From assembly GCA_963820495.1 (NCBI GenBank), contig CAWGAF010000002.1, positions 121,913 through 185,912 of the forward strand: a DNA stretch of 64,000 nt. The letters run 5' to 3'. Source of the stretch: an uncultured Chloroflexia bacterium. Lineage in GTDB: Bacteria; Chloroflexota; Dehalococcoidia; GIF9; UBA5629. Below are positions 896 through 20,952 of the stretch, in pieces. Each line of letters opens with the position of its first letter. Position 1 is the first letter of the stretch. The notes under the pieces are model-generated. The model was not told the origin of the DNA, searched no databases, and saw only the letters and a list, made by a program, of their open reading frames with translations. Both the position numbers and the translations under genes were made by a program.

Positions 896-1579
896 TTACA
901 CCAGCATATAACCAAATGCTTTCTTGCTAATGATCCGCGAGGGTTTAGCAGGTTCAGGTTCTACTTTTTCACGCAGTCTGTGAATTAACTGGTCGATTGT
1001 GGCATCGGATATAGCCGAAGGGTCCTTACTTTCGGGCCACACTGCTTCAATTATCTCGTCTCGCGAGCATACATTTCCGGCATTTTTATAAAGGAACAGT
1101 AGCAGTTCATACTCTTTTTTGGACAGTTTCTTTTGCTTGCCGTCTATTAGGGCCTCTTTTTTCCCCTCCTCGATGTTCAGCCATGTCACTAGGAGTACTT
1201 TGCCGTGCTTACCGGTCAGGACTTCTTTCTGATGAATTATACTGGTGCCTTCAGATTCCTTGAACACCAGTATGATGTGTGCTGAAGTGCCTTCCAACCC
1301 AAGGCCGATCTTGCTGTTGTGCTTGAGTTCATATAAATTGCCGGTAATTATCCTGTCATCATTCAGCATTGTGCCATTGGTACTGCCAAGGTCCTTCACC
1401 CAATACTTGTCATCCTTCTGTAGTATTTCTACATGACGCCTGGAAACAACTTCGTCGTTCAATTCTATATCAGGTTTGTTCTGCGAAGTGAGGCGGCCTA
1501 CTACGACGACCGGTTTATTTAAGGTAAATGTTTTACCAATATCCTCGGCATTACCGCTCTTCACAATTATGAAAGCCAA
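896..1579 (-). CDS. FHA domain + OmpR/PhoB-type winged-helix DNA-binding regulator
   Basis: 227-aa ORF with TTG start and GAGG 6 nt upstream. The N-terminus has FHA hallmarks (VVVGR...SRRHVEI...GSTNGTMLND). The C-terminus (LSKKEYELLLFL...IDQLIHRLREKV...GYMLV) looks like a Trans_reg_C wHTH. Confidence 0.8.
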   Translation of the reverse strand: MAFIIVKSGNAEDIGKTFTLNKPVVVVGRLTSQNKPDIELNDEVVSRRHVEILQKDDKYWVKDLGSTNGTMLNDDRIITGNLYELKHNSKIGLGLEGTSAHIILVFKESEGTSIIHQKEVLTGKHGKVLLVTWLNIEEGKKEALIDGKQKKLSKKEYELLLFLYKNAGNVCSRDEIIEAVWPESKDPSAISDATIDQLIHRLREKVEPEPAKPSRIISKKAFGYMLV

Positions 1580-1758: not shown

Positions 1759-2352
1759 GTGAAACGACTGAAGGTATTATGTAGGGTATGTAATACAGAG
1801 AATGATTCCAACGAAGGAGTCTGCCAGGGATGCGGGGTGTCTCTTGACGTGATAGAGCCGGGCAGTGGTGAATTAAAAATCATCTGCCCAAGGTGCCAGA
1901 ACACAAACAATGCCGGCAGTTTCTTCTGTTATACCTGCGGGAAATATTTCGCTGACATAGATCAAGCAAAGACAGGTTGTGGGCCCAATAAACGAGGACG
2001 GGGTGCACTAATGCGCTCTGCACCGAAGGCCAGGGTGATTATGCCAGGCGGGGCTGAAATAATGCTCACGGGCGCCCCTGTGTTCATAGAACGCAGCGAC
2101 TTTGATAGCACGCTGCCACATGAAATATTGATGAGCATTTCCAGACAGCATATTTTAATTACTTATAGTAGAGGCAAATATTACCTGACAGACTACGGGC
2201 ACGAAGGTAAGGGGAGCACTAACCATACCAGGCTTAACGGCATTGATATATATAAAAAAAGAAAGAAGGCTCTCAAAGACGGTGATAAGATTGAACTGGC
2301 TGGTCAGCCAGAACTTACCCTGACTTTCAGGTTGCTACAAGAGCCGAGCTGA
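1759..2352 (+). CDS. double zinc-ribbon + FHA domain protein
   Basis: 197 aa, GTG start. Two zinc ribbons (CRVCNTEN...CQGCG and CPRCQNTN...CYTCG) are followed by FHA motifs (ISRQHILI...GSTNHTRLNG...DGDKIELAG). Confidence 0.8.
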   Translation: MKRLKVLCRVCNTENDSNEGVCQGCGVSLDVIEPGSGELKIICPRCQNTNNAGSFFCYTCGKYFADIDQAKTGCGPNKRGRGALMRSAPKARVIMPGGAEIMLTGAPVFIERSDFDSTLPHEILMSISRQHILITYSRGKYYLTDYGHEGKGSTNHTRLNGIDIYKKRKKALKDGDKIELAGQPELTLTFRLLQEPS

Positions 2353-2376: not shown

Positions 2377-3180
2377 TTGGAAACAGGTTATAGCTGGGAC
2401 ACAGGACTCTTAAGAGAGATCAATGAGGATAGCATTCTGTGCACCAGCTTTGATCTCAAGACCCACCTGGGAGTCATCTCCGCTGGCCTCTTCGCGGTTG
2501 CAGACGGCATGGGGGGGTACAGTGCTGGTGAAATCGCCAGCGATATTGCCATAAAGACTCTCCATGCAGGGTGTATTTCAGGCCTCCTCGCCCAAAGCCC
2601 TGCTCCACCGCTCTCTATTTTGGCCGCTGCCTTCGACGAGGCTAACAGTAAAGTTATAGAATTTGCCAGCGACACGGATCTGAAGGGCATGGGTACTACC
2701 CTGACCGCTGTACTTGTGATTGGTGGGGATATGTATTTGGCCCACGTAGGTGATTCCAGGTGTTACATAATTAACACCTGGGAGACTATCCAGGTCTCAA
2801 AAGACCATTCCGTAGTCCAACAGCTTGTAGACGAAGGGACTATCACGCCAGAACAGGCAAGGAACCACCCACGCCGGAACGAGATAACACGCGTCCTTGG
2901 TTATTCTAGGGACATTGTCCCGGACCTACATCAGGTAAAACTATATTCAGGTGACAATATCCTTCTCTGCTCTGACGGTCTCTGCAGCGTGCTGCCTTCA
3001 AGTAAGATATCTGAAACCGTCATAGGTTCTGCCAACCCTAACGATGCCTGTACTGACCTGACCGCTCAGGCCAATCTGGCGGGAGGGCCAGACAATATAT
3101 CGGTAATAATAGTAAAGCCCAGCAACCTTCCATCCTGGCAGGCCGTGACCACAGCCCAAACCAGCATTAGGAGAATGTAA
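2377..3180 (+). CDS. PP2C-family Ser/Thr protein phosphatase
   Basis: 267 aa. PP2C motifs: REINEDS, FAVADGMGGYSAGEIAS, GMGTTLTAV, AHVGDSRCY, LLCSDGL, GGPDNISVIIV. Confidence 0.9.
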   Translation: METGYSWDTGLLREINEDSILCTSFDLKTHLGVISAGLFAVADGMGGYSAGEIASDIAIKTLHAGCISGLLAQSPAPPLSILAAAFDEANSKVIEFASDTDLKGMGTTLTAVLVIGGDMYLAHVGDSRCYIINTWETIQVSKDHSVVQQLVDEGTITPEQARNHPRRNEITRVLGYSRDIVPDLHQVKLYSGDNILLCSDGLCSVLPSSKISETVIGSANPNDACTDLTAQANLAGGPDNISVIIVKPSNLPSWQAVTTAQTSIRRM

Positions 3181-4202
3181 TGTGGGGGACGAGTAATGTT
3201 TTATTATTAATGGCCCTGGTCTATGCAGCTTTGGTGGTAACTATCGTTATATTTTTAAGTATACGCAAGCGTAAGAAGGGCCGTTCGCGTTCGGGCCAAA
3301 AGAAGGCACAGGTACCTACCTCTATAAGTAATAACACCTACATCATTAACGGGCGCTATGAACTAATGTCACCGCCTCACAAGCAGGGTGGCATGGCAAC
3401 CATTTGGCTTGCGGTCGATCGCAAAACAGGCAGGACGTGCGTTATCAAAACACCGCGCAGGGGTACTACGATAGATAATGTGTACCTTGAAAAGCTCCTG
3501 TTAGAAGCCAGCTATTTGAAGAGGCTCAAACATCCTAACATAGTCAAATACTTTGACGATTTCTACTATAAGGGCGAATTTCACCTTGTCATTGATTACC
3601 TGAATGGGGAAACTCTGATGGCATCATCGCCGAGGTCTCCCTTTGATGAACAACAGGTCATCTTCTGGGCTTGCCAGCTGCTAGATGCGCTTTCTTACAT
3701 ACACGCCGGCGGCATAGTTCACAGGGACGTTAACCCTAAGAACATAATGCTGCGCAACGATGGTACGGTCGAGCTGATCGATTTTGGCACGGCGAAAGAC
3801 TTGAATGATGCTAGTAAAAATAAGACAAGCATTGATCCGTTTACGCAGATCATGAACAAGGGCTTTGATATCCCAGAGCTGTTCATAGGCGGGGAAAGCG
3901 ACCAGCGCTGTGACCTCTGCGGCCTGGCACAGACCTGCATATATCTCCTTACGCTCAATCCGCCAAACGAGATTTGCTCGAGCTTGTTCAAATCCAACTG
4001 GCCACGCTCGTACAGTGAAGCCACAACTATTGCTGATTACCTTATGACAGCTGGTGTATCAAATCGTACGGCAAAGTGTCTGGCACAAGGCATCTTGTTC
4101 TTCCCAGGCAAGAGGTTCGCTGACGCACGCGCTATGTCGGCTGCATTGTCATCAGCATTGGGTTATCCGCTAAAACCAGTGGAGGTGCTGTTACAGAAGT
4201 GA
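3180..4202 (+). CDS. Ser/Thr protein kinase with N-terminal membrane anchor, no ectodomain
   Basis: 340 aa; the start overlaps the PP2C stop (TAATG). An N-terminal TM helix (LLLMALVYAALVVTIVIFL) is followed by kinase motifs: CVIKTP (VAIK-like), HRDVNPKN catalytic loop, DFGTAKD. Confidence 0.85.
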   Translation: MWGTSNVLLLMALVYAALVVTIVIFLSIRKRKKGRSRSGQKKAQVPTSISNNTYIINGRYELMSPPHKQGGMATIWLAVDRKTGRTCVIKTPRRGTTIDNVYLEKLLLEASYLKRLKHPNIVKYFDDFYYKGEFHLVIDYLNGETLMASSPRSPFDEQQVIFWACQLLDALSYIHAGGIVHRDVNPKNIMLRNDGTVELIDFGTAKDLNDASKNKTSIDPFTQIMNKGFDIPELFIGGESDQRCDLCGLAQTCIYLLTLNPPNEICSSLFKSNWPRSYSEATTIADYLMTAGVSNRTAKCLAQGILFFPGKRFADARAMSAALSSALGYPLKPVEVLLQK

Positions 4203-5311
4203 GAGGCACTTTACTGTTACTTTCTATTGCGTTGATTTTAGGAGCCTTTGCAGCGCTGCTTGGCCAAACGGCAGATGTTGGTGGGGTAGGCGCACCGACG
4301 GATAATTCTACAATACCAAATTCCCCTGCTATTGACCAATCTCAGGATGAAATCAAGCCGTCGGTGAACTATGTCCTGCGAGGGCCTACGTCACAGTCCA
4401 AAAGTACACCGCCCAATTTCATCCCCAGTTTCATAGCGACATCGGAACAGGACAAATTCAAGGTCACTGCAAATGAAACCTGGTATCTGGACGTGGACAT
4501 CAATACGCCCGGATGGCTTTATATTTATGAATATTTTCCCGGGGGAGAGGACTTCCAGGGAAAATGGATAGCCTATAAATGGCAATTGCTGCAAAGCGGC
4601 CTCTGGAAGCTTGGCCCGTTCACTCCCGAGAATAATGAACCAGAGGGGCAGCATATATACCGGATTTGGTTTTACAGCGATGGTCAGTGGGCTGAGGAAG
4701 ACCCCAATGCCACGCAGAATAATCTTGTTTTCTGGACATATTCCAAAGGCCAGATTGCTGAGCAACCTGCAGAGCAAGTACCGCCACAACCACTGGTAGC
4801 CCCTGTAAAAGAAACCACGTTGCTTGACCAGTTGCACGGACTTATCACCCCACCGATGGTGCTGTGGTTCGGTCCCTTGGCCTTTATTGTCATCGTCATG
4901 CTCGGCCTTTATCTGTTTTGGAGGTATGCTAGGCGGGCTAGAAGTCAGGAGCCAGTATCACTGCCTGATGAGTCAGAGTTTGAAGTACCATCCGCGGTAT
5001 TACCATCAGTCGCACTCAGTGCCAAAATAGCGCTACCCAACGGTTTGGAGATCCAGATCGCCGGCAAAAGCAGAGTGATAGGGCGAGTTGAACTCGCCAG
5101 GGCGCTTGGCTTGGATGAACTGGGGCTCATCTCGAGACGACACTTCGAAGTTAGGTCGGAATGCGAGCAGTTCTACATTGAGGACCTGGGCAGCGCTAAC
5201 GGCACCAGACTCAACGGTGCAGATATCAAAGGCAAAGGGCCAGTCAGCCTAAATAACGATGACGTCATAGAACCGGCCGGCGCAATAAGTCTAAAGTTTT
5301 ATGTTCCTTGA
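4199..5311 (+). CDS. single-pass membrane protein, secreted ectodomain + cytoplasmic C-terminal FHA domain
   Basis: 370 aa; GTG start overlaps the kinase stop (GTGA). Contains a signal peptide, an ectodomain with the PGWLYIYEYFP...GLWKLGPF motif, a TM helix (LAFIVIVMLGLYLFW), then FHA motifs (IGR...SRRHFEV...GSANGTRLNG). Confidence 0.8.
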   Translation: MRGTLLLLSIALILGAFAALLGQTADVGGVGAPTDNSTIPNSPAIDQSQDEIKPSVNYVLRGPTSQSKSTPPNFIPSFIATSEQDKFKVTANETWYLDVDINTPGWLYIYEYFPGGEDFQGKWIAYKWQLLQSGLWKLGPFTPENNEPEGQHIYRIWFYSDGQWAEEDPNATQNNLVFWTYSKGQIAEQPAEQVPPQPLVAPVKETTLLDQLHGLITPPMVLWFGPLAFIVIVMLGLYLFWRYARRARSQEPVSLPDESEFEVPSAVLPSVALSAKIALPNGLEIQIAGKSRVIGRVELARALGLDELGLISRRHFEVRSECEQFYIEDLGSANGTRLNGADIKGKGPVSLNNDDVIEPAGAISLKFYVP

Positions 5312-5482: not shown

Positions 5483-7039
5483 ATGAAGAAGATTTTAGTG
5501 GCGATTCTTATTATTATCTTGGTCCAATCAGTCGCTATTATTGCAATCTCACCTGTCTATGCCCAGGACTACCCGCTTCCGCCGTTAAGCCCTGATGTAT
5601 CATGGCAACCTCCGTATCAAGGAGGGCAGTTTATGGAGCCCCAGGTGGGCGTAGAAACGTACAGCCAAACTTGGTCTAACCTACAAATTTCGCCGCCGTT
5701 GGCCGTTGCACCGGGAACCCCGAGCTCTATAGTAAATGCTTACCTTGTCAATAGCTACGGACAGATCCTGACCGACCTGTATCGTAACGGGATATGTTAT
5801 CTAATTGTGTCTTTTAACGGTCCGGGCTATTTCTATCTATGGGAATATTACCCTTCTGGCACCACATCTTACGGACACTGGCTTTGTTACCGATGGTACC
5901 GCCCATACGCTGGCGTCTGGAGGGTCGGGCCATTCGCTGCTGAGTCCTTTGACCCTGCTGGCAGGCATATCTGGAAGATGTGGTTCCTTTCTGGGTACTC
6001 CTGGTCAACTCGGTTACTGAGTTTTAATTTCACCAGGAGCTATTATCCGCCAGACATACCAGGCCTGACACCTGGGCTTATTCATTCACCAGTGATTAAC
6101 TCATTCAGTGCCAACAAATCTTCTGTCGAGGCAGGGGAGACAGCAATCCTGACCTGGACAACCACATATGCTGACAGCGTGACTATATCGCCGGGTGTTG
6201 GAACAGTCGCTGCCTCTGGCTCCACGTCAGTCACTCCAGCTTCCACAATCAGTTATACATTGGTGGCGAGGGGTAAATCGGGCAACCCCGCATCATCGAC
6301 TGCAACCATAACGGTTATACCTAGGCTTCCACCCAATATCAGCATCGGCCAAGCCACAATACAGAGCGGGCAGTCAACATCCCTATCCTGGAATGCCCCC
6401 GGAGCGATCCAGGTATCAATAACGGATGTTGGCAATGTCGGTAACAGTGGGACTACGCAGGTATCGCCGGATAACACAACTACTTACACACTTGCCGCTA
6501 CTTATATTGATGGTACTGCGCAGTCTACATCCGTAACAGTTAACGTAGAGCGGCCGCCATATTTGCTCTGGGGCATTATAACTTTATTGGCAGCAGCAGT
6601 CGTTGTGATAGTTATCTTACTTGTCAGGAGATCTGCGGCAGTCCCCCGGGCACAGGCGGCAGATACACAAGGAGCTTACACGCCAGAGTCAAAAGCAACA
6701 CTTTCCACTGATACATTGCCGGCCACCACGCCGGTAGAGGAGGTTGCCGCGGCTAAGCTTGCCATGCCAGATGGGAACGAGATACTACTGGCAGGCAATG
6801 CCAGGTCTTTCGGTCGGCATGACTTTGAAGAATTCATGCTGCGTGATCAAGTCTCTTATATATCTAGGCAGCACATCAACATCTGGCACGAAAGCGGTCA
6901 CTACTACATTGAGGATCGCAGCAGCACCAACGGCACCAAGATCAATGGTACAAATATCAAGGGAACCGGCCGGCATGCACTTGATGACGGCGATGTAATT
7001 GAGCTTGCAGGCAAATTGAGCATCACTTTTAAAAAATAA
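5483..7039 (+). CDS. single-pass membrane protein, paralogous ectodomain + two Ig-like repeats + cytoplasmic C-terminal FHA domain
   Basis: The track ORF begins at 5372, but the signal peptide MKKILVAILIIILVQSVAIIA starts at ATG 5483. The ectodomain motif PGYFYLWEYYP...GVWRVGPF is paralogous to 4199-5311. Then come two repeats of ~85 aa, a TM helix (IITLLAAAVVVIVILLV) and FHA motifs (FGR...SRQHINI...SSTNGTKINGT). Confidence 0.8.
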   Translation: MKKILVAILIIILVQSVAIIAISPVYAQDYPLPPLSPDVSWQPPYQGGQFMEPQVGVETYSQTWSNLQISPPLAVAPGTPSSIVNAYLVNSYGQILTDLYRNGICYLIVSFNGPGYFYLWEYYPSGTTSYGHWLCYRWYRPYAGVWRVGPFAAESFDPAGRHIWKMWFLSGYSWSTRLLSFNFTRSYYPPDIPGLTPGLIHSPVINSFSANKSSVEAGETAILTWTTTYADSVTISPGVGTVAASGSTSVTPASTISYTLVARGKSGNPASSTATITVIPRLPPNISIGQATIQSGQSTSLSWNAPGAIQVSITDVGNVGNSGTTQVSPDNTTTYTLAATYIDGTAQSTSVTVNVERPPYLLWGIITLLAAAVVVIVILLVRRSAAVPRAQAADTQGAYTPESKATLSTDTLPATTPVEEVAAAKLAMPDGNEILLAGNARSFGRHDFEEFMLRDQVSYISRQHINIWHESGHYYIEDRSSTNGTKINGTNIKGTGRHALDDGDVIELAGKLSITFKK

Positions 7040-7057
7040 ATATAAATAGGAGGTACA

Positions 7058-8377
7058 ATGAATTTCAGAAAGGCAATCCTAATCTTGGCAGTAGCATTAT
7101 TAATATGCTCTGCGACATTATTACAGGTCACACCGACATTCGCTGCAGCGGTCGTGGCGAGCGAACATGGGGTGTCATTGCAGGACCTTCCACCGCCACC
7201 TCCACCTCCACCACCACCACCTCCACCTCCACCACCTCCTCCACCTCCACCTCCACCTCCACCTCCACCTCCACCTCCACCTCCGCCTCCACCTCCACCT
7301 CCGCCTCCACCTCCACCTCCACCTCCACCTCCACCTCCGCCTCCACCTCCACCTCCACCTCCGCCTCCACCTCCGCCTCCACCTCCACCTCCACCTCCAC
7401 CTCCACCTCCACCTCCTGCACCGCCGAGGTGGTACCTTCCTAGTTATCTAGGTCCATGGCCTTATACTTGGAGGTTGCCAAATTACATATGGCCAAACGT
7501 GGTAATAATTGAGCAACCTCAAAAGCAGCCTGTCTATGCGCCGGTAGTTAACTCGTTTACCGCTAATCCGGGTTATATTCATTCGTATGAGACAGTTGTA
7601 TTAACGTGGACCGTGAGTAATGCAGATACAGTTACCTTATCCCCTGGGATTGGTTCAGTTCCCAATTCCGGCTCATACAATGTGAGCCCTGGTTATACAA
7701 CTACCTATACTCTTTCTGCTACTAATAACGCCGGCAGTGTCAGCGCCAGCACCACTGTGACGGTTGTTCCATACGCTTCCGCTTTAAACACCAGCATAGG
7801 CACCCAAGTCATAAGCGATGGGAGCGTTGTCAATGCTGGTGCCAGCGACATCGTGCCCCTCGGGTTCGGGGGTGGCGATGGACCGTTTAATTCATGGCCG
7901 CCGTATGTCCTGTTGATTGGCTTGCTGGTTATAGCGGGCGCGGTTATAGCAGTTTTTCTGGTCAAAAAACCCGCTGTAGCCCATGCAGGACGCCGTGCCA
8001 GCGCGCCTGCAGGATACCTGGCTTGGGCTACCGATACACCAGTTGCAACTAGAACTCCACAAACCACGCCCATTGATGCCGGGACTTCAGCGAAGTTCGT
8101 AACGCCGGATGGGGGGCACATATCCGCATCAGGAAATGTCGAATCTCTGGGAAGGAATGATTTCCAATCTTTTGTGATGCCAGACGAAATCAGCCTGATT
8201 TCCAGGGAGCACATACGAGTCGAATGCGAAAATGGCAAGTACTACATAGAGGACCGTAATAGCACTAATGGCACTAGGATTAACGGGTCTAGAATCACTG
8301 GCAAAGGCAGGTTCTTATTGAGGGATGGTGATGTGATCGAGCTTGCTGATGTACTTACCATTATCTTCAAGGCTTAA
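7058..8377 (+). CDS. single-pass membrane protein with 76-residue polyproline tract, Ig-like repeat and cytoplasmic C-terminal FHA domain
   Basis: 439 aa, AGGAGG SD. Order of elements: signal peptide (TFA/AAV), polyPro tract, a repeat similar to those of 5483-7039 (VVNSFTANP...TYTLSATN), a TM helix (VLLIGLLVIAGAVIAVFLV), then FHA motifs (LGR...SREHIRV...NSTNGTRINGS). Confidence 0.8.
   Translation: MNFRKAILILAVALLICSATLLQVTPTFAAAVVASEHGVSLQDLPPPPPPPPPPPPPPPPPPPPPPPPPPPPPPPPPPPPPPPPPPPPPPPPPPPPPPPPPPPPPPPPPPPPPPPPPPPPAPPRWYLPSYLGPWPYTWRLPNYIWPNVVIIEQPQKQPVYAPVVNSFTANPGYIHSYETVVLTWTVSNADTVTLSPGIGSVPNSGSYNVSPGYTTTYTLSATNNAGSVSASTTVTVVPYASALNTSIGTQVISDGSVVNAGASDIVPLGFGGGDGPFNSWPPYVLLIGLLVIAGAVIAVFLVKKPAVAHAGRRASAPAGYLAWATDTPVATRTPQTTPIDAGTSAKFVTPDGGHISASGNVESLGRNDFQSFVMPDEISLISREHIRVECENGKYYIEDRNSTNGTRINGSRITGKGRFLLRDGDVIELADVLTIIFKA
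7190..7417 (+). repeat. imperfect hexanucleotide repeat (CCACCT / CCGCCT)n encoding 76 consecutive Pro codons
   Basis: Read codon by codon in the frame of CDS 7058-8377, every codon from 7190 to 7417 is CCN. It is followed by GCA CCG CCG. Confidence 0.95.
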
Positions 8378-8394
8378 CAGTACTAAGAGCCAGC

Positions 8395-8439
8395 ACTTGT
8401 GAAGAAAACAGGTGCTGGCTCTTGTTTTTCTGTTCGTAA
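8395..8439 (+). terminator. rho-independent terminator after the FHA operon
   Basis: Perfect 12-bp stem (AAGAGCCAGCAC at 8395-8406, GTGCTGGCTCTT at 8422-8433), 15-nt loop, then GTTTTT. Confidence 0.75.
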
Positions 8440-8909: not shown

Positions 8910-10610
8910 ATGCCTGATCATATCTCTCTTAAATGTATTCTTGAATTACTAGATAATCACTTTATTATCCCTTCCTATCAGAGAGGTTATCGATGGACAT
9001 CTCAAGAGGTAAACGATCTACTGAATGACATTTGGGAGTTTACTAAAAAGGATCAAAAATCTAAAAAGGAATTCTATTGTTTACAACCTATCATCGTTAC
9101 ATCTAATGAGAATGGATATATCGTAATAGATGGACAACAGAGATTAACTACCATTTATATTATTTTCGAAGTATTGAAAGAAATAAAAAACCACTTAACT
9201 AAAAAAATGTTTACTCTCGAATATCAAACGAGAGAAGATAGTGAATATTTTCTTAAAAATATTGAAACATCTCGACAGGATGAAAATATCGACTATTACC
9301 ACATATGTAACGCATATACAACAGTACAGAATTGGTTTGAAACTAAACAAGGTTCACCGAAAATAGATATTTTGAGTACGTTATTACGTGATGATGATAG
9401 TGGACACAATGTAAAAGTTATTTGGTACGAGGTTGATTCGACTTCAACGCTTGACCAAATAGAAATATTTACTCGAATTAACACTGGGAAAATTCCACTC
9501 ACTAATGCTGAACTTGTGAAAGCCTTATTATTGCGAGAAGATAATTTTCAGGGTAATGAGAAAGGCGTACGCTTAGCTCAACTAGAAATGGCTTCAGATT
9601 GGGATAACATTGAGTATAGTCTTGGGGATAACCAATTGTGGTACTTCCTTTGTGATAACCAAAAACAATACGAAAATAGAATAGAATTTATATTTGATTT
9701 GATTGCAGGTACATCAAGTTTAGATAGATACCATACATTTAGATATTTTAATAAGCAACTCACTGAGTCTATGAGTGCTGATACTATCTGGCAACAAATA
9801 AAAAGATACTATCTTACATTCTTCGAATGGTTCGAACGTCGTGAATATTATCACCTTATCGGTTACCTTATCTCTTTGGGAGAAAGCGTAAAAAACCTAG
9901 AGTCCCACTCTTCAACAAAATCAAAATCTGAGTTCAAAGAGTTCTTAGAAGGTAAAATCAAAGATCATGTTAGATATAATATCGACGAACTCAATTACGA
10001 TGAAGACCGAGTTAAAATAAAGAAAATTCTTTTATTGTTCAACATTGTTACTCTACTTTCTAATAAAAACACAAATGCGCGATTTCAATTTGGAAGATAT
10101 AAGACTGAAGAATGGGATATCGAACATATTCATTCAGTGCAATCAGAAAGACCGGAAGCGACAAATCACAAGATTGACTGGTTGAAAGAAGTGTATAGTT
10201 ATACAGAGAACGAGGACCTAAAAAAAGAAATAGAAAATTATCTAGAATCAAGACATGATCAGGATGATGATACATTTGTTAGCTTATTTGACAAGATACT
10301 GCAGGCCTACAGTGAAGATGGTGTAGTTGAAGATATAGATGATATTTCTAATCTGGCTTTATTAGATTCAGGAACAAACCGAGGATATAAAAATGCAGTA
10401 TTTCCGATAAAAAGGCAAAGAATTATAGAAAAAGATACTTACGGGACTTTTATCCCCTTATGTACAAAAAATGTTTTCATGAAATACTATAGTAAAAAAG
10501 TAAATCAAATGACATTTTGGGGTAAAAATGATCGAAAAGCATATTTAGAGGCACTAAAACAAGTATTATCACCGTATATACTAAATATCGAAGATCAGAC
10601 TGATGAATGA
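8910..10610 (+). CDS. GmrSD-like DUF262 + DUF1524 (His-Me finger) protein, putative type IV modification-dependent restriction enzyme
   Basis: 566 aa. The N-terminus has IIPSYQRGYRW and VIDGQQRLTT (DUF262/ParB-like NTPase motifs). The C-terminus has WDIEHIHS...NLALLDSGTNRGYKNAVFPIKR (DUF1524-like nuclease motif). The region is strongly AT-rich. Confidence 0.75.
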   Translation: MPDHISLKCILELLDNHFIIPSYQRGYRWTSQEVNDLLNDIWEFTKKDQKSKKEFYCLQPIIVTSNENGYIVIDGQQRLTTIYIIFEVLKEIKNHLTKKMFTLEYQTREDSEYFLKNIETSRQDENIDYYHICNAYTTVQNWFETKQGSPKIDILSTLLRDDDSGHNVKVIWYEVDSTSTLDQIEIFTRINTGKIPLTNAELVKALLLREDNFQGNEKGVRLAQLEMASDWDNIEYSLGDNQLWYFLCDNQKQYENRIEFIFDLIAGTSSLDRYHTFRYFNKQLTESMSADTIWQQIKRYYLTFFEWFERREYYHLIGYLISLGESVKNLESHSSTKSKSEFKEFLEGKIKDHVRYNIDELNYDEDRVKIKKILLLFNIVTLLSNKNTNARFQFGRYKTEEWDIEHIHSVQSERPEATNHKIDWLKEVYSYTENEDLKKEIENYLESRHDQDDDTFVSLFDKILQAYSEDGVVEDIDDISNLALLDSGTNRGYKNAVFPIKRQRIIEKDTYGTFIPLCTKNVFMKYYSKKVNQMTFWGKNDRKAYLEALKQVLSPYILNIEDQTDE

Positions 10611-12810
10611 TAATGACGGCCAAAAATTAACTTTTCTCGATATATTTAGAGATAAGGAATATTTGGTTGAAATACCAATAATCCAGAGAGATTATGCTCA
10701 TGGAAGAGAATCAGCTTCTAGAGTGAGGAGTAATTTTTTAACTTCCTTATACCATTCTCTCCAAAAAGATGAACCACTCGACCTGGATTTTATATATGGC
10801 AGTATTTCCGATGGTAAATTAATTCCGTTAGATGGTCAGCAAAGACTTACGACACTATTTCTTCTTCATTGGTATCTTGCATCTAAAGAAGGGTACTTAG
10901 AGGATTTTAACAGTATACTCAGAATTGAGAATAGATCTAAATTTACATATGAAACAAGAACAACGTCGCGTGAATTCTGTAATGCATTAATTGCACATGA
11001 GATTGTGATACCTTCTTCACTAACCACCAAAATAAGTGAAACCATTAAGGATGCTCAGTGGTTCTATATTTCTTGGGAAAAAGATCCGACAATCAAGTCA
11101 ATGCTCGTTATGCTCGATGCTATTCATGAGAAATTCATAGACAGTATAGATTTTTACAATAAGCTATCCAAAACTGATAATCCAGTTATTAGTTTTCAAT
11201 TTATTGAGCTCAAGGATTTTGGGCTATCAGACAGCTTGTATATCAAAATGAATGCGCGGGGTAAAGAACTAACTCCATTCGAAAACTTTAAAGCAAAATT
11301 CGAGAAAGTATTGGAAATCTATGATACCGAAAATGATACCAATCTAAAAGAAAACTTCTCTTTGAAAATAGATACTATATGGCCTGACATTTTCTGGAAA
11401 TATAGAGATAAAAAAACCAATTCATTTGACGAGAAAATAATGAATTTTATTCGTATATTAGCTACTAATGAGTATGTAGTCATCTCGGAAAATCTAAACT
11501 TTCTATATTTAGGGAGGTTGATTAATGCGAGAGTGATAGAATTCGATGATCTTGTTGAATTAGATTGTTTAAATACAGCATTTTTCTTATCGGTAATAAA
11601 TACGCTTGATACTCTCAGTGACAAAGGGAAAACAGGTATAAGGGAATATTTACCAAATAATGATTTATTGTCCGAATCTCAGTTATTTCAAGGGGCAATC
11701 GAATATAACTTGTCATATCCAGAGAGAATACAACTTTATGGGTTATTTAGTTATTTAAATGAATTTGGTAACAGTGATAAATTGATTGAATGGATTCGTG
11801 TTGTCAGGAATCTAACTGAAAACACTCGGATTGATGAAATACCTGATTACGTGTCTGCGCTGAAATCGATTAATCAACTCTTTACACATTCAAATGAAAT
11901 TCTTGAATACGTTTCTGATGCTTCAAACGAAATTAGAAGTTTTGCCGCGATTCAAGTTTCCGAAGAAAGACTTAAGGCTTTGCTTATTCAAAAAAGCGAT
12001 AGATGGAAACAAGCTATTGTCAATATTGAAAACCACGGGTATTTTAAGGGGCAAATCGGTTTTATACTGAAATTTTCTGGCATCACCGATTACTATCGAG
12101 AAAATACCAATGTTGATTGGTCAGCCACTGAGGATGGTAATTATTTCAATAAGTTTTCTGAATATTCATTAAAAGCTAATTCGGTCTTTATCCAGACGGG
12201 CTTGAAAAAGTTCAATGATTACCTATTTGAGCGAGCTCTACTATCTAAAGGTAATTATACGCTTAGTAAAGGTCTAAATAATAGTTTCTTAGTGGATTCT
12301 GATAGAGATATCGGATGGAAAAGGTTGTTACGAGATGATAATCAAAAAAGAGATTACGTAAAAGAATTATTGGATGATTTAAGAACATCTGAAATTGAAA
12401 AAGATCTACAAATCATAGTAGATCACTCCACTATCACAGATTGGAGAAAGTATTTTGTTGAATACCCTGAAATGATCGGTGCTTGTGGTACTAGCAAATT
12501 TATTCGATGGGAAAGTAGTAATGATATTTTACTTCTGAAAAGGACCAAAACTAATGGGTTGCACAGTGAATATTCCTCTTACGCTTTATGTGTGAAACTT
12601 AGAAGAATGGGGCATACTGTCTTGTATAGGGAAAGTAATTCAGTAGATTACTGGAAATATATTTATTATATCAATGGGCATAATATTATGATCTACTATG
12701 ATTACTTCGAAGGAGAATGGCACTACTTCATTAAGTATCAAGACGTCACTACCACCCATAAATTTCAAGATGAAGTCTTGTCATATTTAAAAGATAATGG
12801 AATCATTTAA
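10603..12810 (+). CDS. DUF262 domain protein with long uncharacterised C-terminal region
   Basis: 735 aa; the ATG overlaps the upstream stop by 8 nt (ATGAATGA). The N-terminus has IPIIQRDYAHGR and LDGQQRLTTLFLLHWYL. I could see no clear H..P / N..N nuclease motif in the C-terminal ~450 aa. Confidence 0.7.
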   Translation: MNDNDGQKLTFLDIFRDKEYLVEIPIIQRDYAHGRESASRVRSNFLTSLYHSLQKDEPLDLDFIYGSISDGKLIPLDGQQRLTTLFLLHWYLASKEGYLEDFNSILRIENRSKFTYETRTTSREFCNALIAHEIVIPSSLTTKISETIKDAQWFYISWEKDPTIKSMLVMLDAIHEKFIDSIDFYNKLSKTDNPVISFQFIELKDFGLSDSLYIKMNARGKELTPFENFKAKFEKVLEIYDTENDTNLKENFSLKIDTIWPDIFWKYRDKKTNSFDEKIMNFIRILATNEYVVISENLNFLYLGRLINARVIEFDDLVELDCLNTAFFLSVINTLDTLSDKGKTGIREYLPNNDLLSESQLFQGAIEYNLSYPERIQLYGLFSYLNEFGNSDKLIEWIRVVRNLTENTRIDEIPDYVSALKSINQLFTHSNEILEYVSDASNEIRSFAAIQVSEERLKALLIQKSDRWKQAIVNIENHGYFKGQIGFILKFSGITDYYRENTNVDWSATEDGNYFNKFSEYSLKANSVFIQTGLKKFNDYLFERALLSKGNYTLSKGLNNSFLVDSDRDIGWKRLLRDDNQKRDYVKELLDDLRTSEIEKDLQIIVDHSTITDWRKYFVEYPEMIGACGTSKFIRWESSNDILLLKRTKTNGLHSEYSSYALCVKLRRMGHTVLYRESNSVDYWKYIYYINGHNIMIYYDYFEGEWHYFIKYQDVTTTHKFQDEVLSYLKDNGII

Positions 12811-13198
12811 ATCTTGAAAATTCCATAACGATCTACACTAACCACGATCTCGAGTGGCCATAAAAGCCTTGCTTCCAGTGACCCTCCCCGCCTGGATTGG
12901 TTCACCCTGCATTAGAGTTTCCGCGGTCATACAGCAGGAGGCTTTTTCCTTTCGTTTTTTTACATCTCGCCACCACCCGGGAGGGGGCGACAATCTAGCG
13001 CTTTCTTCGACTCTAATTTTATGTCTTTTTGTTGGAAAATGTAGCTAAATACTCACAAAACACGAAGCATATTAACAACAGAATAATAAATGAAAATCCA
13101 TGGACTGAACGCTTGTCCCCTTGAAACGATTTTAGTATGACATTATCGGGCATGGGTTCTTTATTCAGTACAGTATATGGCCAATTTATGAAGCTAAG

Positions 13199-13271
13199 TG
13201 GAGCTGATGGGATTCGAACCCACTACCTTCTGACTGCCAGTCAGACGCTCTCCCAATTGAGCTACAGCCCC
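13199..13271 (-). tRNA. tRNA-Ala (anticodon GGC)
   Basis: Minus-strand sequence GGGGCTGTAGCTCAATTGGGAGAGCGTCTGACTGGCAGTCAGAAGGTAGTGGGTTCGAATCCCATCAGCTCCA folds as a 73-nt cloverleaf. It has a G3:U70 identity pair, anticodon loop CTGGCAG and a TTCGAAT T-loop. No CCA is encoded. Confidence 0.93.
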
Positions 13272-14345: not shown

Positions 14346-16259
14346 TTATTTTGCAGCTCTTGCTTTTTTCTTGGTGCTAAAGCTTAATCCGCTGCCATCA
14401 ACGCTGCTGATGAAGATATGGCTGCCTTCTTTAAACTCACCACTGAGAATCTTGTTGGACAAGGGATTCTCTACATAGCGCTGGACAGCTCGGCGCAGTG
14501 GACGTGCTCCAAAGGCTGGTTCAAAACCTTCCTTGAGCAGCCAGGATTTTGCCTCATCATCCAGTTCCAGTACTATATTACGGTCTGCCAATCGTTTCTG
14601 CACTTCATTAATTAACAGGTCTACAATCTTCTTCAAATGTTCCTCAGTAAGAGGATGGAAGATGATGATATCGTCTATTCTGTTGAGAAACTCAGGGCGG
14701 AAGGTCCGTTTCAGAGCATTATCTATAGTCCCCTTCAACCTATCGTAGTCGCTCTTTTCCTGTTTTTCCTGGCGGGCAAAGCCTATTGCCTGTCGCTGGA
14801 ATTCCTCGGTACCCAGGTTGCTGGTCATTATTACGACGGTATTTCTGAAGTCAACTGTTCTGCCATGGCCGTCGGTTAACCTGCCATCCTCGAGTATTTG
14901 GAGCAGGATATTGAAAACATCAGGGTGCGCCTTCTCAATCTCGTCAAAAAGGATTACCCGGAACGGGCGCCGTCGCACGGCTTCGGTCAATTGTCCTGCT
15001 TCTTCATAGCCGATATATCCAGGCGGAGCGCCGACAAGGCGTGAAACCGTATGTTTTTCGCCGTACTCGGACATATCTATCCGAATTAGGGATTCCTCAT
15101 TATCGAACAGAAATTGAGCCAGTGCTTTAGCCAACTCCGTTTTGCCGACGCCGGTGGGGCCTAAAAAGATGAAGCTGCCCACAGGGCGTTTGGGGTCTTT
15201 GAGACCAGCTCTGCCACGTCTGATGGCTTCCGATATAACGGAGACAGCTTCTTCCTGGTTGACAATTCTGTCATGCAGTCTTTCCTCCATGTGAAGTAAT
15301 TTCTCAGCTTCACCCTCCAGCATGCGAGATACCGGGATACCGGTCCACTTGGCAACCAGCTCAGCGATGGTCTCCTGGTCTACGGGTTTATCGAATTTTT
15401 TCTCTTTACGCCACGCTGAATCTAACTGCTCATGCTCCGGTTCCAGGCGTAACCGCTGTGCCCTTATTTCGGCTGCTTTCTGATAGTCTCCCTGCTGAGC
15501 TGCTGATTCCTCTTCGTTTTGCAGTTGCTTTATCTGGATGTCCAGTTTTTTGATATTATCAGGTTTACTTTCCATGTCGATATGTATCTTGCTGGCTGCT
15601 TCGTCAATGAGGTCTATAGCTTTATCTGGCAGAAATCTATCCGAGATATAGCGCTGGCTCAGTTGAGCTGCAGCTACCAGTGCGGAATCATCTATCTTGA
15701 TTTTATGGTGAGCTTCATATCTGGGACGCAGAGCATGCAGCATTTCTATAGTCGCCTCAACGCTGGGCTCATTGATAAATATTGGCTGCAACCTTCGTTC
15801 TAATGCTTTATCCTTCTCAATATGCTCACGGTATTCATTTAGAGTGGTGGCTCCGATACATCTAAGCTCGCCACGTGCCAGCGCAGGCTTTAGCATATTG
15901 CTGGCATCAATGGCTCCCTCGGCAGCACCGGCACCAACGACAGTGTGCAACTCGTCGATGAATAAAACCACTTCTCCATTGGACTGGCGAACTTCATCTA
16001 TCACCGCCTTCAGCCGCTCTTCAAACTCGCCTCGAAATTTGCTGCCGGCAACCAGCGCTGCCATATCCAAGGCAATTACTCTTTTATTTTTTAGAGAATC
16101 AGGTACATCGCCAGCGGCGATTTTCTCAGCTAGACCTTCAGCAATGGCTGTTTTGCCTACGCCAGCCTCACCGATAATGACGGGGTTATTCTTGGTTCGG
16201 CGAATCAATATCTGCATTACTCGTTTTATTTCGTCATCACGCCCGATCACAGGGTCCAA
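14346..16259 (-). CDS. clpB: ClpB disaggregase, NBD1-middle domain-NBD2 fragment (downstream part of a frameshifted clpB)
   Basis: 637 aa: [13 protein letters not shown], Walker A GEAGVGKT and GPTGVGKT, a coiled-coil M domain, and GARPLRR. ClpB homology continues upstream of the track start in this frame ([23 protein letters not shown]). Confidence 0.9.
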
Positions 16260-16792
16260 TTTCCCCTTGCGAGCAAGCTCGGTAAGGTCACGCCCATACT
16301 TTTCCAGGGAGCGGTACTTGCTTTCGGCTCTGGGTCCTCAGCCCGATGTCCACCCCGGATATCCTTAACTGACTGATAAATTTTTTCCTTGTCGATGCCA
16401 AATTCTTTCAGTATAGTGGCTGTTTCACCGCTGCTTTCGCTAGCAAGAGCGATAAGCAGATGCTCCACGCTGATAAAGTTGTCTTTAAATTGCTCAGCTT
16501 CGCGAGCGGCACTTTGCATTAGGCTGGCAATTCTGGGGGTAGCATAGATTTGGGCTCCTCCCTGGTTCATCTGGGGGGCATTGTCCAGAGTGGCTTGCAC
16601 CTGTCCTTTTAATGCTTCTATATTTACCCCCAGCTTTTCCAGTATTTGCAAAGCTATGCCGCCTTCTTGGCGCAGCAAAGCTAAAAAAAGGTGTTCTACA
16701 TCCCACTGGCTATGGCGGTAGCCAATGGCAATCTCCTGGGAAGCAGCTATTACTTCCCTTGCTTGCTCAGTAAATTTTTCTGGTCTTATCAT
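16247..16792 (-). CDS. clpB: ClpB N-terminal domain fragment (upstream part of a frameshifted clpB)
   Basis: 181 aa with two Clp_N repeats ([16 protein letters not shown]..., ...[11 protein letters not shown]). Homology ends at ...[13 protein letters not shown] and is followed by an out-of-frame tail. Confidence 0.85.
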
Positions 16793-17468: not shown

Positions 17469-18464
17469 TTAATTAGGGCGAAGAGCCCTCAACTGCTCAA
17501 ATAGTTGCTTCTCCTTTTGGGTCAACTTTGTGGGCAGAACCACTTTCACTTTAGCGAAAAGGTCACCATGTTGTGTTAGGTTGCCCAGATGCGGCATACC
17601 TTTCCCTGCGAGGCGAAATACATTGCCGTTGGGAGTTTCCGGCGGGATTTTGAGAGCTAACTTACCCTTTAGGGTTGACAATTCTGCCTCGCCGCCCACA
17701 ATGGCAGTGAGCAAGGGTACAGAAACGTCGGTATGGAGGTCATCTCCTTTGCGCTCAAAGGTCTTGTGGGGCAGCATCTTCACGATCAACTCAAGATCGC
17801 TTTTAGCTCCACCGGCGCCTGCGCCGCCTTGTCCAGCCAGGCGTATCTTGGAACCATCTGTGACACCCGGTGGTATCTTGACTTCAATGCGCTTCATCTT
17901 GGGGAAACTGCCTGAGCCGCCGCAGGCAGAGCAGGCTTTACCCCGTACCCTGGCTGATCTACCGGTACCACTACAGGCGGAACAAGCGTCTTCGCTCTGA
18001 AGTTGAAACATGCGTGTAGTACCCTGATAGGCTTCTTCCAGAGTAACTTCTATAGGATGTTGAACACTCTTGGGCTTGCTAGGACGGCGAGAAGCAAAGG
18101 TGCCAGTGCCGAATCCCTTAAACAGATTCTCAAAGACGTCACCGACACCGCCAGCGTCACCAAAGTCATAGGTAGTGTAAGTTCCGCCTTTGGGAAAATC
18201 CCATTGAGCTCCTTGTCCAGCCTTAGAGAATTGGTCGGCATATTGCCACTGCTCACCAAATTGGTCGTATTTTTTCCGCTTTTCTGGATCAGAAAGAACC
18301 TCGTGAGCTTCGTTTATCTCCTTAAATTTGGCTTCTGCAGACTTATCCCCGGGGTTGACATCCGGATGATATTTCCGGGCGAGACGGCGATAAGCCTGTT
18401 TTATTTCCTTTTCTGTGGCACTGCGACCGACCCCTAATATATTGTAATAGTCTTTTCCTGGCAT
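17469..18464 (-). CDS. DnaJ-family co-chaperone with reduced zinc-finger (two CxxCxG motifs)
   Basis: The track ORF extends to 18683, but the J domain begins at [12 protein letters not shown] (ATG 18464, GAGG 6 nt upstream). HPD motif, G/F-rich region, CSACSGTG and CSACGGSG. Confidence 0.85.
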
Positions 18465-18482
18465 AAACTTACCTCGTGGTCT

Positions 18483-18511
18483 ATTATAATTTATTTCTGC
18501 AATAGAGTCAA
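18483..18511 (-). promoter_or_regulatory. near-consensus sigma70-type promoter for the J-protein-hspR-clpB operon
   Basis: The minus strand reads TTGACT-17 nt-TATAAT (-35 at 18511-18506, -10 at 18488-18483), ~19 nt upstream of ATG 18464. Confidence 0.6.
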
Positions 18512-18627
18512 CAGTGTCGGCAAGAAATATAAAATAATTTGTTAAGAAATTGTGACAAAAAATTAATAATATATGATAGTTATTATCAGAGTGGAGCCCA
18601 AGTAGAATACAAAAGGAGGAGAGATTT

Positions 18628-19107
18628 ATGAATCTAGTACGCTGGAACCCTGTTCGCGAGATGGTGACTTTGGGACAAGCCATGGATAGTATGTTTGACC
18701 ATGATTACTTCCGACCGTTCTGGCTGTCTGTTGAGTCCGGTGTAAATTTAGTTCCTGCTATTGACATGTATGAGACTGATAATGAGATAGTGGTCAAGGC
18801 GACTATGCCTGGAGTGGAGGCAAAGGAGCTTGATATTAACATTACTGGCGATACTCTTACTATAAAAGGTGAGACCAGCTCAGGAAAAGAAGAGAAGAAG
18901 GAAAATTATTACTAACAGGAATGCAGCTACGGCACCTTCGCCCGTAGCATAACGCTGCCTGCTGGAGTGGAGACTGATAAGTCTGAAGCAAGCCTGGATA
19001 GTGGTATATTGACTTTGACTTTACCTAAAGCCGAAAGTGTTAAACCGAAGTCTATTAAGGTTAAGGCAAAGAAGGCTATAGAAGGCAAAAAAGAGGTTAA
19101 AAACTAG
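18628..19107 (+). pseudogene. Hsp20/alpha-crystallin small heat-shock protein interrupted by an in-frame TAA (18913-18915)
   Basis: The track ORF stops at 18915 (…KEEKKENYY*). The same frame continues QECSYGTFARSITLPAGVETDKSEASLDSGILTLTLPKAESVKPKSIKV... to TAG at 19105-19107. Together these make a normal 159-codon ACD protein. Confidence 0.8.
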
Positions 19108-19686: not shown

Positions 19687-19836
19687 TGTAATCCATCATA
19701 CATCAGTGATTGTTGGCTATACAAATTTGAAAACTTCTTGTGTTTGCTGAGTGTGAGCAGTTGATAAACGATTTGTATTTGAGACTTGTCAGGCGGCCGA
19801 ATTATTGTCTATACTGTAGGTTTGAGGACTATCAAT

Positions 19837-20952
19837 ATGCGTGCTGAAAAAGATTATTATGAAATACTCGGTGTGTCCAGAGATGCCAACACTGAGCAGA
19901 TTAAACGAGCTTTCCGCAAGCTAGCGTTCCAATATCACCCTGACCATAACAGAGACCCTGAGGCTGGGGAGAAATTTAAGGAGATTAACGAGGCTTATGA
20001 AGTCCTCTGCGATGCTGAGAAACGCGCTTCTTACGATCGATATGGGCGGGTATCTACTTCAGATTGGCCTGGGGGTTTTGAAACCTTTAATTTTGGCGGT
20101 TTTGGAGACCTCTTTGAAGCTTTCTTTGGAGGGGCGACAACAACTTCTAAACGCCGTGCTCCTAAGAAAGGGGCTGACCTACAAGTCAATCTCACTATTT
20201 CTTTTGAGGAGGCAGTATTTGGTGGCAAGAAGGAGATTGAGATTGGACGGGTAGAAAATTGCTCTTTGTGTCGTGGCATTGGCAGTAAACCAGGAACAAA
20301 TCCTCAGAAATGTTCTGATTGCAATGGCACTGGCCAGGTACGACGTACCCATGAAAGTCTCTTCGGGCATTTTGTTCAGGTTATTACCTGTCCCAGATGC
20401 AATGGCGAAGGTACCAGTATTGCTGATCCCTGCCCGGAATGCAAGGGTGGTGGGAAAGTGAAAGTCAAGCGCAAGCTGGCGGTTATTATACCTGCAGGAG
20501 TAGATGAAAATTACCGGATGCGCTTAAGCGGAGAAGGTCAGGCTGGTGTTTATGGTGGCTCACCAGGTGATGTCTATATCGCTTTTTCCATTAAACCGCA
20601 TGAATTCTTTGTGCGGGAAGGAAATGATATTATTTGTGAGCTGTCAATTAACTTTGCCCAAGCGGCACTCGGAGGCAATATAGAGGTGCCTACCCTTGAT
20701 GGCCCTACAATGTTAAAAATACCGCCGGGCACACAAAATGGCAAAGTTTTTCAGCTTAAGGGCAAAGGGGTATCACGTGTTGATGGAAAAGGTAGAGGGG
20801 ACCAGCTGATTCAAGTAAGAATAATAACTCCGCAATCTCTGGATGAAAAGCAGAAGAAGCTTTTCGAAGAATTAGCTAGGACATTGCCCGAGGCTGAAGT
20901 ATCTGGAGAAGGAGCTAAAAAGAAAAAGGACAGGATGAGGTTTGGGGATTAG
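19837..20952 (+). CDS. dnaJ: chaperone DnaJ (full four-motif zinc finger)
   Basis: The J domain starts at [13 protein letters not shown] (ATG 19837; the track start at 19786 is an extension). HPD motif, [32 protein letters not shown]. Confidence 0.9.

Follow-up and report, generated by a model that had tools for sequence, protein, structure and literature searches.

We identified, in a 64,000-nucleotide stretch of contig CAWGAF010000002.1 from an uncultured Dehalococcoidia bacterium (hereafter, the window), a gene for a predicted membrane protein that carries an uninterrupted run of 76 prolines. This open reading frame (ORF; 7058..8377, + strand) encodes 439 amino acids and is referred to here as the polyproline FHA protein. 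We propose that the run of prolines (P76) forms an extracellular stalk, in the polyproline II (PPII) conformation, as the free N-terminal end of a single-pass membrane protein of type-I topology (N-out, C-in) with a cytoplasmic FHA domain. To this reading as a whole, including its two premises that the tract is genuinely coding and translated as a homopolymer and that the protein has this topology, we give a joint probability of roughly 0.6.

Direct reading of the DNA gives 76 consecutive CCN codons at nucleotides (nt) 7190-7417 (+ strand; amino acids 45-120), followed by A-P-P, an exact match to what a preliminary description of this stretch had claimed. The tract is an imperfect (CCT CCA)n array with 36 CCT, 34 CCA, six CCG, and no CCC codons. 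Tandem Repeats Finder reported a period of 6 over 7189-7416 (38.5 copies, 89% matches, score 372), in agreement with the imperfect hexamer array noted in the same description. This is the sole run of five or more prolines within all six frames of the window. As proline accounts for approximately 4.9% of the codons in the window's other long ORFs, the probability of such a run arising by chance is roughly 1e-99, and chance is no candidate explanation for its origin.

The gene has the features expected of a translated unit. The reading frame is unbroken across the tract. A Shine-Dalgarno sequence, AGGAGG, was read directly at 7048..7053 (+), 4 nt 5' of the ATG, and the GGAGG-N4-ATG arrangement is also found in the related locus L002. 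Only 18 nt separate the gene from the stop codon of an upstream paralog. An intrinsic terminator with a 17-bp stem and a T run lies 3' of the stop codon (8384..8434, +), which makes the polyproline gene the final gene of its operon.

Two other ways of reading this region were considered and rejected. The other two frames of the tract would encode poly-Ser/Thr or His/Leu (ORFs 7105-7443 and 7167-7451), and only the proline frame joins the conserved flanks. A start at GTG 7499 would leave the protein with no signal peptide, an Ig domain in the cytoplasm, and the FHA domain outside, and would ignore the conserved in-frame N-terminus and the Shine-Dalgarno sequence. This start corresponds to the public record: an exact look-up of the full 439-residue protein returned no match there, and the public entry P0121 (window 7499-8377; 292 amino acids), located on a 1,336,719-bp NCBI/ENA contig, is identical from GTG 7499 onward and omits the signal peptide and the entire P76 tract.

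A homology search for the family found more than 200 homologues, and those bearing a name were metagenome-assembled genomes (MAGs) labeled 'Dehalococcoidia bacterium'. Every full-length orthologue gene call has a proline-rich stretch after the signal peptide, with pure runs of at most 11 residues, and this segment is kept in full-length orthologues down to about 45% identity; in more distant orthologues, it takes the form of impure PPxPP stretches. The close homologues are mostly 280-310 amino acids long and begin just 3' of the tract. We read the DNA upstream of ten such short-called genes, and nine of these contigs reach past the tract, while that of L206 ends inside it. A signal peptide and a long polyproline tract were present in frame in nine of the ten (only nearly so in L208). 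The pure runs have 101 prolines in L208 (ENA ERZ25039515 contig_114361), 53 in L210, 48 in L125 (GCA_041643135.1), 27, 22, and 10 in L126, 26 in L127, 25 in L124, 23 and 12 in L123, 21 in L209, and 18, within approximately 80 proline-rich residues, in L207. Gene callers started downstream in all ten relatives, often with a spurious opposite-strand ORF over the tract. P76 is the second-longest tract seen in the window's clade, after the P101 of L208. From these sequences, long pure polyproline appears to be the rule in the clade, and P76 is no single-assembly oddity. The preliminary description had proposed a comparison with orthologues, with the prospect that they might lack any spacer of this type; they possess a proline-rich one. 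A scan of metagenome_contigs for the exact 3' flank of the tract gave no matches.

The longest tract requires a comment. In L208, it spans nt 1146-1448 and contains about 101 proline codons (CCA 34, CCT 40, CCG 27, no CCC), and it is flanked by two 1-nt frameshifts that place it out of frame with both the signal peptide and the gene body. These frameshifts are probably long-read indel errors, since other genes of the same sample (L002) are also fragmented; the alternative is a real pseudogene.

Tract length differs between close relatives. The DNA flanking the tracts of L125 (P48) and L208 (P101) is 92-94% identical, and L127 (P26) and L209 (P21) are 90% identical. Over the last 60 nt of the tract, the window and L001, which are 98% identical, differ by a one-codon indel, two synonymous changes, and one GCA>CCA replacement. 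Thus the repeat unit is a multiple of 3 and its copy number differs between close genomes, as in contingency loci. The in-frame length variability that had been suggested from the 6-nt unit is observed as variation between relatives, whose pure runs range from 18 to 101.

The codons within the tracts indicate what has been retained. CCC represents 23% of the proline codons elsewhere in the window versus none of the 76 in the tract, and only 7 of approximately 530 codons in the orthologous tracts; as a result of this avoidance, no C homopolymer longer than two is formed. CCC-CCU pairs are slow and prone to +1 frameshifting (PMC12856214). In the shorter tracts (21-48 codons), third positions are near-random among A, T, and G (conditional entropy of 1.25-1.46 bit, for a maximum of 1.58), internal repeats do not exceed 26 nt, and there are no first- or second-position changes and no non-proline codon. 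In P53, P76, and P101, third-position entropy is about 0.8 bit and internal repeats reach 53-80 nt, which indicates recent multi-codon block duplication in the longest tracts. The avoidance of CCC and the synonymous scrambling point to selection for translated proline. Judging from these codon patterns, expansion by duplication or slippage overlies purifying selection for proline.

The predicted architecture places the tract outside the cell. A signal peptide is encoded at 7058..7144 (+; amino acids 1-29), with MNFRK followed by the hydrophobic core AILILAVALLICSATLL and the site TFA|AA, where cleavage was judged by inspection. By the same inspection, it has the positive n-region, the hydrophobic h-region, and the small residues at -3 and -1 of a Sec-type signal peptide, and this n-h-c layout with an AxA-type site (VSA or ASA) recurs in the full-length orthologues read; cleavage of the polyproline FHA protein by signal peptidase is likely. 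A lipoprotein reading of the conserved Cys17 was rejected, as positions -3 to -1 (L-L-I/V) are unlike a lipobox and an AxA site follows. The mature protein would begin with a short peptide (7145..7189, +; amino acids 30-44, AAVVASEHGVSLQDL), followed by P76 and by a Trp/Tyr-rich segment (7427..7543, +; amino acids 124-162, RWYLPSYLGPWPYTWRLPNYIWPN...) modeled with low confidence. In orthologues, the segment between the signal peptide and the tract ranges in length from about 10 to 200 residues, often with many Thr and Ala, and those read have either a W/Y-rich segment or a Cys-rich variant of it after the tract.

We built an AlphaFold2 (AF2) model on the family alignment (44 sequences) from which conservation was also read. 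The model has an N-terminal helix at residues 3-22 and an extended proline tract with a predicted local distance difference test (pLDDT) score of 80-86; AF2 has no power on cis/trans proline populations, and the extended tract is to be read with this limit. Beyond the tract lies a predicted Ig/PKD-like beta-sandwich ectodomain (7544..7768, +; amino acids 163-237; pLDDT 93-98, or 95-98 when modeled alone) of seven to eight strands. Its best Foldseek match was the PKD domain of a Methanosarcina S-layer protein (1l0q; E 8e-4, 30% identity), with titin Ig domains next. A Pfam scan of the whole protein at E <= 0.01 returned no PKD, Big, or Ig model, only FHA and the related Yop-YscD_cpl; the Ig/PKD assignment, which comes from the structural model, is at the fold level only.

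A transmembrane (TM) helix, predicted from both the AF2 model and the sequence, follows at 7895..7963 (+; amino acids 280-302) and is itself followed by KK...RR, consistent with the positive-inside rule. The predicted cytoplasmic Thr-rich linker (7964..8092, +) is disordered in AF2 and contains a nearly invariant T336-T-P-I motif (T336 at nt 8063-8065). T336 and P338 are at least 90% conserved among the 44 family sequences, and T336 is a candidate phospho-acceptor. The FHA domain occupies 8093..8374 (+; amino acids 346-439). Pfam PF00498 matches amino acids 364-429 with 55.6 bits against a gathering cut-off of 20.7 (E 7e-15), and in AF2 the FHA fold, an 11-stranded beta-sandwich, covers amino acids 346-438 with a pLDDT of about 90. 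Foldseek matched it to 3poa/3oun (FhaA) with a target TM-score of 0.78-0.80 and a probability of 1.00; with the full-length model as a query, only FHA matches were returned (Mycobacterium tuberculosis FhaA and GarA; OdhI). G365-R366, S382-x-x-H385, and N404-G405, the signature residues for phosphothreonine (pThr) binding by FHA domains, are invariant in the 44 family members, making pThr-peptide binding a putative function. Altogether, AF2, Pfam, and Foldseek bear out the domain order given in the preliminary description, namely signal peptide, proline tract, Ig-like domain, TM helix, and cytoplasmic FHA domain.

The same cannot be said of the rigid spacer of 23-24 nm proposed from the letters, which was overstated. 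Indeed, for an all-trans PPII helix, 76 x 0.31 nm = 23.6 nm gives the contour length, not the reach. In water, a cis-Pro kink is already present in approximately 30% of P20 molecules (PMC8054241), and multi-cis species and cis content increase with polyproline length (PMC3101224). If this trend is extrapolated, about three in four P76 chains would contain one cis kink or more. Persistence lengths of polyproline range from 4.4 to 13 nm, and a worm-like-chain estimate for P76 with these values gives an rms (root-mean-square) end-to-end distance of 13-18 nm. 'Semi-stiff extended stalk' is therefore a fairer description than 'rigid 23-24 nm rod'. The idea that the stalk holds the N-terminus far from the membrane did not stand either, as there is nothing to be held: only about 15 residues precede the tract after the predicted signal-peptide cleavage, and these make it a free N-terminal extension rather than a linker between domains.

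The polyproline gene closes an operon whose genes are all on the + strand. They encode a double-zinc-ribbon and FHA protein (1759..2352), a PP2C phosphatase (2377..3180), a Hanks-type Ser/Thr kinase with one N-terminal TM helix (3180..4202), a third membrane FHA protein (4199..5311; signal peptide or TM, aromatic domain, TM helix, FHA), and the upstream paralog (5486..7039), for which a signal peptide, an aromatic domain, two Ig-like domains, a TM helix, and an FHA domain (Pfam) were recognized. A divergent gene (896..1579, -) for an FHA and winged-helix (Trans_reg_C) regulator holds the same position in L002. The kinase has no PASTA domains, and only about five of its residues lie outside the membrane, meaning that it has no sensor ectodomain. 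The operon does not contain RodA/PbpA. The full gene order recurs in L002, and the two preceding FHA genes are visible in L123-L125 and L207-L210; the kinase/PP2C/FHA operon is conserved in the Dehalococcoidia relatives examined.

The three membrane FHA proteins are paralogs. The polyproline FHA protein is 35% identical to the upstream paralog over 385 amino acids (E 1e-56), and the proteins encoded at 4199-5311 and 5486-7039 share an aromatic N-terminal domain. This aromatic ectodomain has the motifs YxWEYYPxG...W..Y+W...G.W+.GPF and no Pfam match. The W/Y segment 3' of the proline tract aligns with the C-terminal end of the aromatic domain of the upstream paralog. From this alignment, the stalk may have replaced most of the aromatic domain in the polyproline FHA protein.

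A model can be proposed from these elements. The lineage is putatively monoderm, and the stalk would project from the Ig/PKD domain on the outer side of its single membrane. Draft Chloroflexi genomes, among them two that are probably related to Dehalococcoidia, bear on the envelope type. In one study, two of three had no peptidoglycan synthesis pathway and all three were predicted to be single-membrane (PMC3971608). Being extended and semi-stiff, the stalk would serve as a reach or contact element, perhaps into or through a surface layer; alternatively, it would contact aromatic-rich partners. The three FHA ectodomain proteins would supply the extracellular modules that are missing from the kinase, docking to it or to each other via pThr-FHA contacts, with T336-T-P-I as a candidate docking site in the fashion of GarA/OdhI. 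The 75 consecutive Pro-Pro bonds of P76 contain the stalling motifs of the XPP/PPX rule (PMC12856214, PMC4176338). From established knowledge, translation of the tract would need elongation factor P (EF-P), and the protein would as a consequence probably be produced at a slow rate and a low level. All bacteria are reported to have EF-P (PMC4218817); a scan of ORFs of the 64-kb window did not find efp.

Several points weigh against this proposal. AF2 does not place the stalk and the aromatic segment in confident contact, and the stalk has no folded domain at its tip, so that the term 'spacer' in its usual sense does not apply. The wiring of the FHA proteins to the kinase or to each other is wholly inferred, and signal-peptide cleavage was judged by eye. 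Finally, the count of 76 is that of the assembly, and a probable 1-nt indel in clpB suggests residual indel errors in this assembly.

Several alternatives, some of which are compatible with the extracellular stalk, were weighed. The first, which we consider rather unlikely, is that the PPII helix is a binding platform, that is, a multivalent ligand for aromatic-rich partners that would cluster the three FHA proteins and the kinase. Its candidate partners are the Trp/Tyr segment next to the tract in the protein itself and, in the two upstream paralogs, the N-terminal domains, which are likewise rich in Trp and Tyr. The W/Y-rich (or Cys-rich) segment found after the tract in the orthologues read and the aromatic-rich ectodomains of both paralogs agree with this idea, and PPII helices are classic ligands of the aromatic-lined SH3, WW, and GYF domains (PMC12856214). 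However, the basis here is analogy alone, the AF2 model contains no such contact, and Pfam detected no SH3, WW, or profilin-like domain in the cluster.

Two further explanations appear slightly less likely still, neither more so than the other. In one of them, ribosome pausing is selected, not the peptide: the tract would act as a translational throttle that slows elongation during membrane targeting or, in a variant, caps the expression of the last gene of the operon or ties it to EF-P activity. In E. coli, enrichment of polyproline motifs was seen close to N-termini and downstream of TM helices, and a role in membrane insertion was proposed for them (PMC5811046). Moreover, P76 starts at residue 45, about when the signal peptide would exit the ribosome tunnel, and half of its codons are CCT, which is a slow codon according to PMC12856214. 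Nevertheless, three to five prolines suffice for stalling, a need that is far exceeded by 76-101, and a more than five-fold length variation among close relatives is unlike a tuned timer. It should also be noted that the PPxPP stretches of distant orthologues keep an extended proline-rich peptide rather than maximal stalling, and that other ultralong tracts are located mid-protein, between domains.

In the other explanation, a functionally indifferent linker was inflated by slippage in some lineages and is merely tolerated. The extreme variability in length, the recently duplicated appearance of the longest tracts, with their 53-80 nt internal repeats, and the free distal end are in line with such a runaway repeat. 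Yet the scrambled synonymous codons of the shorter tracts, which have no non-proline codon, the avoidance of CCC, and the retention of the proline-rich segment down to about 45% identity all speak for constraint. In addition, consecutive prolines are costly to translate (PMC5811046, PMC12856214), so that an indifferent tract would be expected to erode.

An uncleaved signal anchor would turn the proline tract and the Ig domain into a loop tethered at both ends, lying along or arching over the membrane. The conserved Cys in the hydrophobic core (LL[IV]CSA) could be taken as a sign of such an anchor, but the helix is short, the orthologues read share a conserved small-x-small site (VSA, ASA, TFA) downstream of the hydrophobic core, and the linker between the Ig domain and the TM helix (about 42 amino acids) would be too short to pair with an extended 24-nm arm. 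We consider this topology very unlikely.

The least probable explanation is an assembly artefact, in which the repeat was expanded, collapsed, or chimeric and the real tract is much shorter or impure; in a weaker form, the long tract is real but has a length other than 76. The species has one other assembly, L001, a JGI contig from short reads; this contig stops about 20 codons into the tract, and its first 28 nt are unrelated to the window, do not occur in it, and contain an in-frame stop, suggesting a chimeric end or a strain difference. The frameshifts around the P101 of L208 and the clpB of the window, split by a 1-nt frameshift, also leave room for indel errors. Against an artefact, exact internal repeats in 7100-7500 reach 53 nt at most and k-mers of 55 or longer each occur only once, so that the tract can in principle be assembled from reads or k-mers of that length, the frame is preserved, independent assemblies of nine relatives have pure runs of 18-101 at the same site, and the matching public gene is on a 1.34-Mb contig, hence in a highly contiguous assembly.

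With regard to clpB, it appears as a Clp_N ORF (181 amino acids; 16247-16792, -) and an AAA ORF (637 amino acids; 14346-16259, -). An apparent single-base deletion lies at the junction, near 16335-16345, with ...DPEPKAS... in one frame and the rest in the other. The split would stem either from an indel made in assembly or from a genuine frameshift, and it affects how much trust the exact length of the tract deserves.

We compared the polyproline FHA protein with known systems. TonB carries a central proline-rich domain (PF16031) that, as proposed for P76, is an extended PPII element of a single-pass membrane protein, lies outside the cytoplasmic membrane, and has a reach role; it spans the periplasm (PMC12204202). 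TonB, in contrast, is anchored N-terminally, has a globular C-terminal far end, and works with ExbBD across the periplasm, whereas the polyproline FHA protein has its anchor on the C-terminal side of the stalk, a free distal end, and a putative monoderm host. The TonB tract consists of Pro-X repeats (EP/KP in E. coli) and is not a homopolymer. No TonB_C or TonB_polyP Pfam match was found in the polyproline FHA protein, which, given also its opposite topology, does not belong to the TonB family. SpvB of Salmonella is comparable in having a pure polyproline run that is encoded by a slippage-prone array and differs in length among isolates. This linker has 9 to 24 prolines among Salmonella Gallinarum isolates, with a reported functional effect (PMC7763567). 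Unlike the stalk, it serves in a secreted toxin as the link between two folded domains; it is shorter by a factor of three to ten and comes with neither a membrane anchor nor an FHA domain.

The cytoplasmic part resembles FhaA/Rv0020c, FipA/FhaB, GarA/OdhI, and EmbR in its FHA fold and pThr-binding residues, the best structural matches being FhaA, GarA, and OdhI. As in the mycobacterial and corynebacterial FHA systems with a Ser/Thr protein kinase and PstP, a Hanks-type kinase, a PP2C phosphatase, and an FHA-winged-helix regulator are encoded nearby, and the conserved Thr motif that precedes the FHA domain is reminiscent of the phospho-switch of GarA/OdhI. However, these proteins are cytoplasmic or have other topologies, and none of them combines a signal peptide, a polyproline stalk, and an Ig ectodomain.

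A scan for (CCN)40 in one genome per species (185,579 species; the window's own genome was not among the matches listed) gave at least 120 matches and revealed at least 45 prokaryotic loci with mixed-codon proline runs of 40-158, while about half of the matches listed were poly-C/poly-G contig junk. Ten of these loci were scanned with Pfam; eight had recognizable domains, and none of these was FHA. They include a lipoprotein with P29-S-P78 followed by a subtilase (L103), a FecR protein with P158 and P46 (L118), a SpaA-like protein with P96 (L016), a cupredoxin with P88 (L062), an fn3 protein with P62 and P48 (L013), a GSDH protein with P56 (L027), and a TonB with a pure P41 (L085); L116 and about 37 others are also among these ultralong loci. 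Like P76, these are pure CCN runs with mixed synonymous codons, several of them in frame within proteins that have recognizable envelope-type domains. They differ in being mostly inter-domain or anchor-to-domain linkers, from Actinomycetes, Proteobacteria, and Thermodesulfobacteriota, and are unrelated in sequence to the FHA family. By their contig names, these loci come mostly from long-read MAGs, which fits the idea that short-read assemblies do not get through such tracts.

Triple prolines represent 91% of the E. coli polyproline motifs (PMC4218817), and B. subtilis has no proline run beyond four, a 20-proline construct having been called artificially long (PMC12856214). P76 is therefore very unusual versus model organisms and less so versus sequence space. 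The P76 stalk is an extreme case of the known proline-rich PPII envelope spacers with slippage-driven length variation. A broader and doubtful proposal, for which we see perhaps slightly more room than for any of the single alternatives above, is that ultralong proline stalks (about 50 to more than 150 residues) are a widespread and overlooked class of bacterial envelope elements. In the Dehalococcoidia, stalk length would be a fast-evolving, selected 'ruler' for the reach of a kinase-coupled FHA receptor, and an unusually capable EF-P would be demanded. Such a class would have been overlooked because short-read assemblies break in the tracts and gene callers start after them. In the literature that could be searched, no description of ultralong polyproline envelope tracts as a class was found.

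If the extracellular stalk is real, it would be a natural extreme substrate for the study of proline translation; indeed, with P76, which is under evident selection, and the tract of about 101 in a relative, EF-P and its helper factors could be tested on a naturally occurring extreme. There is also an annotation blind spot, as the protein is filed as an 'FHA domain protein' of 280-310 amino acids seemingly devoid of a secretion signal, as well as an assembly blind spot, as short-read contigs break inside the tract. Lastly, the operon pairs a kinase that has no ectodomain with three FHA proteins that have one, which suggests a split-receptor design that is uncharacterized in Dehalococcoidia.

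One match is of a different kind. L028, a Metamycoplasmataceae MAG contig (CBDHHR010000826.1), contains kilobase (CCGCCT)n and related dinucleotide and hexanucleotide arrays that read as P231 or P190. These proline runs are flanked by (SA)n, (FS)n, and (RL)n, and the region looks like non-coding or artefactual low-complexity DNA.

A conserved mini-ORF of 26 amino acids (MNFRKTIFILTTAFLVCSVLLLKFKK, always 26 codons) was observed about 100 nt 5' of the polyproline gene in 9 of 13 related loci, at 2342-2422 in L123, 2480 in L124, 2506 in L125, 925 in L126, 3616 in L127, 3666 in L128, 932 in L207, 826 in L208, and 1014 in L209. It is absent from the window, L002, L129, and L210 among these 13. By its sequence, it resembles a second copy of a signal-peptide segment, retained as a very small hydrophobic protein or as a leader peptide.

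The remainder of the window is ordinary chromosome, with dnaK/grpE/hrcA, dnaJ, der, polA, gltX, glyA, and molybdopterin oxidoreductases. Two DnaJ-type genes are present (17469-18683, -, and 19786-20952, +), one canonical and one N-terminally extended with a weak zinc-finger match, as well as two molybdopterin oxidoreductases of the dimethyl sulfoxide reductase family (51948-54467, +, and 62666-63970, -). Directly 3' of the FHA operon are two adjacent genes of the GmrSD family (type IV restriction, DUF262; 8910-12810, +), which adjoin a tRNA-Ala (13198-13271, -) and were not found downstream of the operon in related loci; this pair may be a small defence island.

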